Virus record (IMG/VR): IMGVR_UViG_2695420643_000008
Coordinates: 1 to 5,987 of that record
Source of the DNA: a virus
Taxonomy: Duplodnaviria > Heunggongvirae > Uroviricota > Caudoviricetes
Direction: 5' to 3' (one strand)
DNA length: 5,987 bases
Part shown: piece by piece, positions 1,499-2,341 of the stretch
Layout: each line of letters begins with the position of its first letter
How positions within the stretch are numbered: the first letter of the stretch is position 1
Notes under the pieces: generated by a model
The model's database searches: none
What the model saw: the letters and a program-made list of their open reading frames with translations, nothing else
Told to the model about the DNA's origin: nothing
Position numbers and translations under genes: made by a program

Positions 1499-1535
1499 TA
1501 ATAAATTCAATCAAAGTAAATAATCATATTTTATT

Positions 1536-1572
1536 ATAACCTCCTGATGATACCTGTTCATCGGGAGGTTAT
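1536..1572 (+). promoter_or_regulatory. 15-bp-stem inverted repeat (7-nt loop) that buries the moron ribosome-binding site
   Basis: 1536-1550 (ATATAACCTCCTGATGA) pairs with 1558-1572 (TCATCGGGAGGTTAT) with one G-U wobble; loop TACCTGT. The 3' arm contains the GGGAGG Shine-Dalgarno (1563-1568) 5 nt before ATG 1574. No U-tract follows, so it is not a canonical intrinsic terminator. Confidence 0.6.
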
Positions 1573-1573
1573 T

Positions 1574-2191
1574 ATGGATAAAAATGTAGAGCATGTATTA
1601 GTTGATGCAATTGAAAATAAGCAATCTTTAACAGTCGTTTACTTAGGAGGGAGCCAGCCCGGAACATTAAGGAATATTTCTCCGATTAGTATAAATGGGG
1701 ATAAATTGCGGGCAAGATGCCATAGTTCTGGAGCAGTAAAGGTTTTCAATCTTGGGAAAATACAGTTACCCAGTGACTCCTGCGCGGTATCTATGCACTA
1801 TGGAGATTTAGAAGTTAAAGCTTATGAGACGATGCAGAGCGTAAATGACAACTTTCATGCCCTTTATCCTGAAGGACGATGGGGTGTTGATTTTAATGAG
1901 CATCGCTTTGCTTTATTTGATTTTTTTAAAAACGGGAAACGAAAAAAAACGGCATTTATGGCAATTGAGTTCAGGGAAAGAGATGAAGAGAAAATAATAA
2001 CAGGTGTAACAATTGATATTGGTATATCTGGAACAGTGATTTCTGAGAAGTCCCGAATCCCAAAAAGACGACCATGGGTAGTGGTTGGTCCCGAACACGG
2101 AGAATACAGTACTTATTCAACTTTGGACAAGGCTGCTACAGCGTTTTTTGAGAGGCTTTCGTTGATAGCATCCGGCCTGGAAGATAATTGA
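1574..2191 (+). CDS. AT-rich moron protein (205 aa) with WYL-like N-terminal domain; function unknown
   Basis: ORF track 1547..2191; I prefer ATG 1574 because GGGAGG sits 5 nt upstream, whereas ATG 1547 is preceded by the anti-SD-like CCTCCT. Visibly more AT-rich than its flanks (not computed). Residues ~17-65 (SLTVVYLGGSQPGTLRNISPISINGDKLRARCHSSGAVKVFNLGKI) follow the WYL-domain pattern as I recall it. Rare codons are heavy: 6 ATA, 3 AGA, 3 AGG, 4 CGA. Confidence 0.65.
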   Translation: MDKNVEHVLVDAIENKQSLTVVYLGGSQPGTLRNISPISINGDKLRARCHSSGAVKVFNLGKIQLPSDSCAVSMHYGDLEVKAYETMQSVNDNFHALYPEGRWGVDFNEHRFALFDFFKNGKRKKTAFMAIEFRERDEEKIITGVTIDIGISGTVISEKSRIPKRRPWVVVGPEHGEYSTYSTLDKAATAFFERLSLIASGLEDN

Positions 2192-2316
2192 TTTTATGTT
2201 TGGTATTCAGAGTTCGCCGTGCTTAAGTCAAGATTCTAAAAATACTGAATGAGCTACTTGTGTTATAACAAAAATGCTATTAGTGTGTTAAGAGTGGTTA
2301 CTTCGCCACACAACTT

Positions 2317-2341
2317 AAACCCGCCGCTGAGCGGGTTTTTC
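2317..2341 (+). terminator. Rho-independent terminator downstream of the moron
   Basis: AAACCCGC (2317-2324) pairs perfectly with GCGGGTTT (2331-2338) around loop CGCTGA, followed by TT; the T run overlaps the 3' arm. Confidence 0.6.

Follow-up and report, generated by a model that had tools for sequence, protein, structure and literature searches.

What does a 205-residue WYL-domain protein do in a prophage that encodes it between the antiterminator Q and the promoter on which Q acts, and why is its gene kept there? The question is raised by virus record IMGVR_UViG_2695420643_000008, of which the first 5987 bases were analyzed (this whole stretch is referred to as the window). They comprise the late-regulatory region of a stx-less lambdoid prophage of the Shiga toxin (Stx) phage type. 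From 5' to 3', the order is Q, a stable hairpin, the 205-amino acid open reading frame (ORF), the putative late promoter pR' (-35 TTGTGT, -10 TAGTGT), a leader hairpin, and the presumed terminator tR' (Table 1). The best explanation for this arrangement is an accessory gene that resides within the late-switch module of such a lambdoid, Stx-phage-like, stx-negative prophage. WYL domains are sensors of single-stranded DNA (ssDNA) through which bacteria turn on their DNA-damage and anti-phage responses. We know of no characterized WYL example that is not coupled to a DNA-binding or enzymatic partner domain. In our judgment, there is a slightly better than even chance that the gene encodes a stand-alone nucleic acid-binding WYL protein that is made early and acts by ligand capture or protein contacts.

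The initial annotation had placed a 205-residue gene directly after the Q stop codon, and this gene model holds. Start codon and Shine-Dalgarno (SD) sequence are in place, and Escherichia coli S88 carries the same 618-bp gene model in RefSeq. Comparison with a diverged allele from E. coli SCU-105 (73% amino acid identity) revealed purifying selection, with a ratio of nonsynonymous to synonymous divergence (dN/dS) of 0.22 at a dS of 0.83. E. coli proteins 99% identical to the window protein were found. The match to phrog_8498 covered the full protein length (E = 2.9e-126), and residues 6-192 matched the first half of phrog_31886 (374 positions), which has the architecture of gp2 from Pseudoalteromonas phage PY3. 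Both are PHROGs clusters only, without assigned function or structure; the window protein is a full-length member of the former. A word-indexed search with the single sequence yielded only nine relatives, and the family came to light only through an exhaustive profile search. Among 1.84 billion cluster representatives (clusters at 50% identity), this search recovered 954 clusters with E ≤ 1e-3, 608 with E ≤ 1e-10, and 191 with E ≤ 1e-30, nearly all of them proteins of 187-210 residues matched from end to end. A scan of the genome collection with a five-sequence alignment returned seven loci. A chance ORF is excluded by the selection on the gene together with the size of its family. NCBIfam did not match the ORF, PADLOC matched it with weak WYL models only, and a literature search on the RefSeq accessions and the PHROG number of the family found no paper. 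Thus, the 205-residue protein is the product of a real gene belonging to a large, unstudied family.

The N-terminal half of the protein is assigned with high confidence, as regards anatomy and fold jointly, to the WYL domains, i.e. to a Sm-like barrel that has kept the phosphate-binding loop of DriD from Caulobacter crescentus. The WYL-like pattern suspected earlier at the N terminus was borne out at the level of the family: PF13280 was matched by 40 of 109 family members (best E 4.8e-8), and a profile built from these 109 sequences found the WYL domain of DriD in the PDB at E 1.3e-4. All eight PDB matches of this profile up to E = 10 are WYL proteins (DriD, BrxR, and CapW). The domain shows the five-stranded Sm-like/SH3-like β-barrel of the WYL superfamily, which sets in at residue ~18 after a single helix. 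A fold search of BFVD returned no viral protein matching over the full length; all matches were small phage proteins of Sm-like or WYL type that aligned with the N-terminal domain. The loop Y23-L-G-G-S27-Q-P-G-T-L-R33-N-I-S-P37 aligns with Y168-E-G-G-S172-T-P-G-R-T-R178-E-V-T-P of DriD, in which Tyr168, Ser172, and Arg178 form hydrogen bonds with the ssDNA backbone phosphates (PMC9186387). The equivalents of these contact residues are conserved to 100% (Y23), 93% (S27), and 100% (R33). In the 109-sequence alignment, only Y23, G26, R33, and K56 are invariant, all within the WYL domain, and G25, S27, P29, G30, P37, A47, F58, and K62 are conserved to at least 90%. By analogy with DriD, binding of ssDNA or RNA is predicted for the window protein, a prediction that we rate at about an even chance. 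The protein would bind short stretches of ssDNA or RNA, or a related nucleotide ligand, with ssDNA the most likely of these.

Regarding the C-terminal part, the initial annotation had recognized nothing in residues ~90-205, and no Pfam, NCBIfam, or PADLOC family matched the C-terminal domain in our searches either. The C-terminal 124 residues were modeled alone on a 35-sequence alignment. The model (predicted local distance difference test 85.7, predicted template modeling score 0.74) consists of a helix, five antiparallel strands, and a helix, with a low-confidence insertion of ~35 residues (~135-167). This helix/five-strand sheet/helix topology is common to the Frataxin/CyaY fold, on which 73-75 residues superpose at 2.4-3.0 Å. 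As modeled, the C-terminal domain is a frataxin-like α/β sandwich confined to this family. Its conserved motifs are GW, FKNGK, RPW, and LDKAxxxF. No sequence or profile similarity to the plasmid anti-SOS protein PsiB was detected. A widespread family of about a thousand 50% identity clusters, present in thousands of E. coli assemblies, has kept the sensor and replaced all else by an uncharacterized fold.

Could the protein nevertheless be a conventional WYL transcription regulator of a neighboring defense or damage operon? Its database names would suggest so, because some copies are labeled "WYL domain-containing protein" by RefSeq and two homologues "YafY-type regulator" by JGI. The domain analysis contradicts this idea. 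No helix-turn-helix (HTH) family was matched in the 109 family members, no HTH extension was seen among the relatives inspected, and the single helix in front of the WYL barrel leaves no room for one. A WCX dimerization domain was not detected in the window protein either. Without HTH and WCX, the protein cannot function in the way known WYL transcription factors do. Moreover, no regulated operon is adjacent; the neighbors are Q and pR'. We consider a conventional regulator scarcely credible, and the hint at a defense-system regulator that had been taken from the WYL pattern finds no support at this locus, where neither an HTH nor an adjacent defense operon was found.

Comparison with the characterized WYL proteins leads to the same distinction. 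DriD (PDB 7tzv, 7u02, and 8tp8) is the best match in both sequence and structure: the fold is again a Sm-like barrel, and in both proteins the loop reads Y-x-G-G-S-x-P-G-x-x-R-E-(I/V)-x-P. It activates transcription, and its WYL domain is flanked by an HTH at the N terminus and, at the C terminus, by a WCX dimer domain that takes part in clamping the ssDNA, whereas the phage protein has neither and ends in an unrelated fold. BrxR, CapW, and PafBC are winged HTH-WYL-WCX repressors or activators that bind DNA and lie beside the operon they control; the phage protein is devoid of winged HTH and WCX and is usually encoded alone. WYL1, the Cas13d accessory protein (PDB 6oaw), possesses a ribbon-helix-helix and a dimerization domain of its own and is encoded beside cas13d, whereas the window has no CRISPR context. 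The WYL fold, its ssDNA-sensing role, the database clusters, and the RefSeq label on some copies were already known. New are the combination of a WYL domain with a family-specific fold in the absence of HTH and WCX, the abundance of a family without any study, and the placement inside the Q-pR' module. Rather than through transcription, the phage protein would act by sequestering its ligand or by protein-protein contacts of its C-terminal domain.

Several relatives depart from the standard architecture. A C-terminal extension of ~180 residues of unknown nature is present in P0068 and in gp2 of Pseudoalteromonas phage vB_Psp_PY3 (locus L023, 2006-3115). P0127, P0143, and P0144 carry N-terminal membrane anchors, and P0090 carries a C-terminal double zinc ribbon plus membrane segments. 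In a SWIM-finger fusion (locus L010, 611-1159), only the WYL domain is retained. None of these variants has added an HTH or a recognizable effector. The extra C-terminal domains of the longer relatives were considered as a clue to an effector and discarded, as they gave no Pfam or PADLOC match.

The position of the gene relative to pR' was derived by homology. From 2284 to 2720, the window is 88% identical over 446 alignment columns to the stretch following Q in Sakai Stx2a prophage Sp5; these columns run from the leader through tR' and the methylase remnant into the first tRNA, so that the flank 2284-2553 is homologous to the Sp5 pR' start, leader, and tR'. Stx1a phages match the window from about 2281 onward. 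In Sakai, the pR' start (determined by differential RNA-seq) and the 3' end at tR' (Term-seq) are 258 nt apart (Sy et al., PMC7547250). Absolute coordinates in that publication are offset from the current RefSeq record, and the 258-nt spacing was used instead. Counted back from the T run of tR', the Sakai start would be the AAGAG after TATCAT, ~22 nt past the Q stop codon, and the start site in the window would fall at about 2293-2296. The distance from the Q stop to the start site would then be 795 nt in the window versus ~22 nt in Sakai and ~45 nt in PPyecE_EH1910. The hexamers at the -10 position of the window, PPyecE, and a Stx1a phage follow the common pattern T/C-A-n-T-n-T. By this homology, the WYL ORF lies between Q and Q's own promoter. 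A gene at this place had been called atypical, and rightly so, because pR' normally follows within tens of bases of Q.

The gene had also been credited with a terminator of its own. A hairpin with a T run indeed exists at 2319-2343, corresponding to approximately +27 to +50 of the pR' transcript. It is kept, with pair-preserving changes, in PPyecE, a Stx1a phage, Sakai Sp5, and SCU-105. In PPyecE, which is devoid of the ORF, the -10 hexamer, leader, and hairpin come directly after Q; in the Stx1a phage they come after three reverse-strand genes. As the hairpin is part of a conserved segment (about 2281-2347) shared with phages that lack the ORF, it belongs to the conserved late leader and not to the gene. 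No terminator was found between the ORF stop and pR'. The anatomy of this prophage class is corrected accordingly: the late promoter is 0.8 kb from Q, and the apparent gene terminator is part of a StxS-type leader. The position of tR' has been mapped as the 3' end of StxS (PMC7547250), a 74-nt Hfq-binding small RNA (sRNA) that is processed from the 3' portion of the leader in enterohemorrhagic E. coli. The segment 2293-2553 represents a complete StxS-type late leader (~260 nt) that shares 88% identity with its counterpart in the Sakai Stx2a prophage, here in a phage that has no stx. Homologues of the leader hairpin were located at L016 ~1070-1097, L003 ~3036-3062, L001 ~4478-4503, and L022 ~4679-4705; counting the window, it is conserved in five phage lineages. 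Although this hairpin resembles a terminator only ~27-50 nt into the transcript, the pR' RNA of Sakai was mapped to end at +258.

Just upstream of pR', the 17-mer TTGTGTTATAACAAAAA (17 bp upstream of -10) is identical between two diverged Q-WYL alleles, whereas the rest of the spacer from the ORF to the -10 hexamer cannot be aligned between them (dS ~0.8). The allele pairs sharing it differ at about half of their synonymous sites. At the same position the sequence of PPyecE differs, and its Q is only 52% identical, differing through the predicted DNA-reading helices. TTGTGTTATAACAAAAA is therefore a candidate for the -35 element plus the binding element of this Q21-family antiterminator.

Linkage of the ORF to Q was examined among 5426 complete E. 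coli genomes. The ORF is present in 52 of them with at least 98.8% identity, and the full Q allele in 74 (56 at ≥ 99%); the 5' third of Q is common to about 780. The order Q-then-ORF is invariant in all eight otherwise mosaic contexts, which were retrieved by exact protein identity, and also in S88, strain 219, and SCU-105, while the outer neighbors vary. Relatives with and without the insertion, whose comparison had been proposed, do exist: the ORF is absent at the same place from PPyecE_EH1910, the Stx1a phages, and Sakai Sp5, all of which share the flanking leader. In the diverged pair of SCU-105, protein identity is 85% for Q and 73% for the ORF, and synonymous divergence is alike (dS 0.80 and 0.83, respectively). 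Equal dS and invariant linkage imply that Q and the ORF have traveled together for long and that the ORF is an old resident of the Q-pR' module. The diverged allele pair, found in SCU-105 (L022, 3516-4592) and on a metagenome contig (L015), has the same order and the same hairpin.

A functional tie to Q might be seen in this linkage. The protein might modulate the late switch: by binding to the pR' leader RNA as it emerges, or to ssDNA in the paused complex, it would tune Q-dependent antitermination. This would explain the fixed place between Q and Q's promoter, the invariant linkage, and the co-divergence; a Q of the same type again precedes the diverged WYL allele, and WYL1 offers a precedent because it binds single-stranded RNA and modulates the activity of another protein, according to a passage of PMC9186387. 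However, most family members are not beside a Q gene, and related Q alleles work without the ORF, as in PPyecE. Hitchhiking between Q and its binding site accounts for the linkage more simply: a position between the antiterminator and its cognate site shields a gene from recombinational loss without any functional tie. We regard a late-switch modulator as very unlikely. In the preferred reading, the accessory gene would persist by position, since whatever lies between Q and the cognate promoter or binding site travels with both. Mere location between an antiterminator and the site to which it binds can lock a cargo gene in place.

These findings also bear on the proposal that an AT-rich, horizontally acquired moron was inserted after Q. 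The ORF (39.6% G+C) and its two intergenic spacers (26.7 and 31.5%) are indeed low in G+C compared with the DUF968 gene (55.5%) and the tRNA segment (55%). Over 1465-2283, G+C amounts to 37%. The immediate flanks, however, are similarly AT-rich, with 38.9% for the 3' half of Q and 41.5% for the pR'-tR' unit. The AT-rich tract is hence wider than 1499-2341, extending from the 3' half of Q to about 2555. The 3' half of Q is part of the same mosaic module as the WYL gene: the full Q allele was found in only 74 genomes, the 5' part in 778. The gene resembles the phage morons of Hendrix and Juhala (e.g. stx at the equivalent region) in being an extra low-G+C gene that is variably present and not needed for the core lytic cycle. 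It differs from them in lying upstream of pR', without its own terminator or a demonstrated promoter, and in being strictly co-inherited and co-diverged with one Q allele. Thus, the description as a moron is upheld in part by its absence from related lambdoid phages and its presence in few genomes, whereas the lack of its own terminator and of a convincing promoter and the co-divergence with Q speak against a self-contained, recently inserted cassette.

How might the gene be expressed? It lies downstream of Q and upstream of pR', with no terminator between, which argues for early rather than late transcription. Most simply, the WYL gene would be the last gene of the delayed-early (pR) transcript, with its translation restrained. 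The restraint would come from the stem-loop 1530-1578, which holds both the SD sequence and the AUG in paired regions and at -25.6 kcal/mol is more stable than any of 200 shuffled sequences; UUAUUAU follows and overlaps it. The stem-loop is kept in the SCU-105 allele (-18.1 kcal/mol, z = -4.4). Between the alleles, arms and loop have been conserved while the remaining spacer has diverged, and two of three arm substitutions keep the pairing. An SD-burying hairpin as a regulatory feature of the whole family was rejected because none was present upstream of seven distant members; it belongs to this genomic position and not to the gene family. The stem-loop could gate translation, weakly terminate those transcripts that leave Q unmodified, or be a site for RNase III. 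The idea that an unstructured mRNA arises from a promoter within the hairpin was also considered and is unsupported by conservation between the two alleles. On the minus strand, from 1560 to 1533, a near-consensus sigma-70 promoter lies inside the hairpin (TGAACA-16 nt-TATAAT, 10 of 12 positions). Transcripts from it would enter the 3' end of Q in antisense direction, much as with lambda paQ. The diverged allele has a weaker version (TGAACG ... TACTGT), and in AT-rich DNA the match may be due to chance.

Expression also bears on an alternative role, in which the lysogen expresses the protein from its own weak promoter as a superinfection exclusion factor or single-gene defense, the WYL domain sensing single-stranded nucleic acid of an incoming or replicating phage and the C-terminal domain blocking that phage. 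AT-rich -10-like hexamers occur upstream of the ORF at 1527-1540 and would suit such a promoter, but a consensus scan of the plus strand upstream of the ORF revealed nothing convincing. In addition, SD and AUG are sequestered, and the gene is located in a lytic early transcription unit.

Further evidence on exclusion comes from the settings in which other family members reside. Outside E. coli, the gene is a solitary accessory gene with no constant neighbor. Some members occupy sites of lysogenic conversion, as would be expected of exclusion genes: in temperate Pseudoalteromonas phage PY3, a member fused to an extra domain lies between int and the repressor gene; two related marine prophages carry one in their immunity/early region; and another adjoins a Rha gene at a prophage end. 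Members were also found near integrases (one of them at locus L005), in a 209-kb cyanophage, and among SUKH immunity genes together with an insertion sequence. Two reside in defense islands, one with SMC/AAA and Mrr-nSTAND3, the other in a metagenome-assembled genome of Leucothrix mucor (L004, 673-7428) that comprises an AAA_15 ATPase, an FRG protein, GmrSD_N (DUF262), a RiboL-PSP HEPN, and the WYL-family gene, followed after one 151-residue ORF by a NERD nuclease. Others were found in ordinary chromosomal settings. Membrane anchors, as exclusion proteins often have, are present in some variants. On the other hand, PADLOC matched no defense model beyond the weak WYL models, and no effector-like or catalytic motif was seen, the conserved residues of the C-terminal domain looking structural. 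On balance, exclusion or single-gene defense is an unlikely role, though one to be reckoned with. The pattern of contexts points to phage-host or phage-phage conflict without fixing its direction, and such conflict is probably the likeliest role.

The opposite direction would be counter-defense. A WYL protein without HTH, made early upon induction or infection, might serve as a decoy that soaks up the ssDNA signal of host WYL regulators of the CapW/BrxR type or of other ssDNA-triggered responses. Host WYL repressors derepress defense on sensing ssDNA, as stated in a passage of PMC11662680. A place at the end of the early operon, before the late genes, fits the timing of an anti-defense gene, and conservation is strongest on the ligand-binding loop, not on an output surface. 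In one of the marine prophages, the family member belongs to a group of genes opposite in strand to a Cro-like gene and adjoins Ant-domain and RNase_T-family genes, a set that we read as an early-left operon. Yet the idea is inferential throughout. A low-copy sponge seems inefficient given the abundance of ssDNA and its occupation by SSB and RecA, and members also occur at non-phage chromosomal sites and in defense islands. We consider a decoy distinctly unlikely. A broader version, in which HTH-less WYL proteins form a class of free-standing ssDNA sensors or sponges of temperate phages that would capture the ssDNA signal of damage or replication upon induction or infection and then blind WYL-controlled immunity or damage responses of the host or feed the lysis-lysogeny or late switch through the C-terminal domain, is a long shot; a signal fed into the phage's own switch would explain why the gene is welded between Q and the promoter. 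No specific biological role of the protein can be given more than a low probability.

The preferred reading, i.e. an early-made, stand-alone nucleic acid-binding WYL protein whose translation would be held down by the -25.6 kcal/mol hairpin, has to be weighed against several observations that speak against it. For the window protein alone, PF13280 scored 16.3 bits (E 0.0096), below the cut-off of 21.8. The W-Y-L tripeptide is absent, residues 43-46 reading D-K-L/K-L-R. The equivalent of DriD Arg176 is T31, which is not conserved, and the isoelectric point of the whole protein is 6.6, near neutral. The HMMER alignment to DriD covers only the first half of the barrel, and because the second half is left unaligned, K44, K56, and F58 are taken, on the pattern usual in WYL domains, to stand in for DriD Y192, R204, and W206. 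With its SD sequence buried, the protein could be scarcely made, or the gene may have its own promoter. The missing tripeptide is not strictly defining, since the W-Y-L motif of DriD itself is degenerate (NYL; PMC9186387). If the protein does bind ssDNA, it could be used directly to ask whether phages sense or mask the signal that their hosts use.

Table 1. Features of the window, with coordinates counted from its first base
Feature	Position	Strand	Evidence and remarks
DUF968/HNH-like gene	114-1109		
Antiterminator Q gene, 123 amino acids, Q21 family	1127-1498	+	Pfam Phage_antitermQ E = 5e-48; PDB Q21 E = 2.6e-10; coordinates via homology to S88 RefSeq
Q stop codon	1496-1498		
Predicted stem-loop pairing SD (1563-1568) and AUG (1574-1576)	1530-1578	+	-25.6 kcal/mol, z = -6.6; 0 of 200 shuffles as stable
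Gene for WYL-domain protein, stand-alone, 205 amino acids, phrog_8498	1574-2191	+	ATG 1574, stop 2189-2191, SD GGGAGG 1563-1568
WYL domain, residues ~3-65	1580-1768	+	Helix plus five-stranded Sm-like barrel
C-terminal domain, residues 82-205	1817-2188	+	
AT-rich non-coding stretch	3' of WYL ORF		
17-mer TTGTGTTATAACAAAAA, candidate Q-binding element	2261-2277	+	Holds pR' -35 TTGTGT; 17 of 17 positions identical between two diverged Q-WYL alleles
Putative pR' -10 hexamer TAGTGT	2284-2289	+	Aligned: TATCAT (Sakai Sp5), TAATGT (Stx1a phage), CAGTAT (PPyecE), TAATCT (SCU-105)
Leader hairpin (G+C-rich) and T run	2319-2343	+	Sequence and RNA fold
tR', intrinsic terminator	2524-2553	+	GCCAGCC...GGCTGGC plus T6; near-identical to Sakai Sp5 tR'
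N6/N4 DNA methylase C-terminal remnant, 38 codons	2558-2674		Arranged as in Sakai Sp5
Three tRNAs	2715-2964		Trio typical of Stx phages; Sakai annotation ileZ-argN-argO
74-amino acid ORF	within 3055-4326		phrog_2571
69-amino acid ORF	within 3055-4326		phrog_4280
TerB/TciA-like protein gene	3659-4162		
DUF3927 membrane peptide, 55 amino acids	4159-4326		Overlaps TerB/TciA gene
STnc100 sRNA match	4334-4503		Rfam 102 bits (gathering 47), E 3e-22; just 5' of nanS-p-type gene
nanS-p-type esterase gene	~4593 to window end		DUF1737 + SASA

A mosaic joint is visible at 2281-2347. S88-type prophages match up to position 2347 and Stx-phage-type sequence from 2281 onward, and the shared 67 bp, which would contain the pR' -10 hexamer, the start site, and the leader hairpin, look like the point of recombination. 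Among the complete E. coli genomes of the collection, no place covered 80% of 1400-2720, i.e. the exact combination present in the window. An Rfam scan of the window gave no significant match within 1499-2560; matches to Qrr and to a plastid family in this interval (E 0.3-0.4) were dismissed as chance. Where the window has the methylase remnant, PPyecE, strain 219, and SCU-105 carry a complete methylase gene. The segment 3055-4326 corresponds to the stxAB position of Stx phages and holds other cargo in the window. The first tRNA of the trio was identified by ARAGORN as tRNA-Met (CAT).

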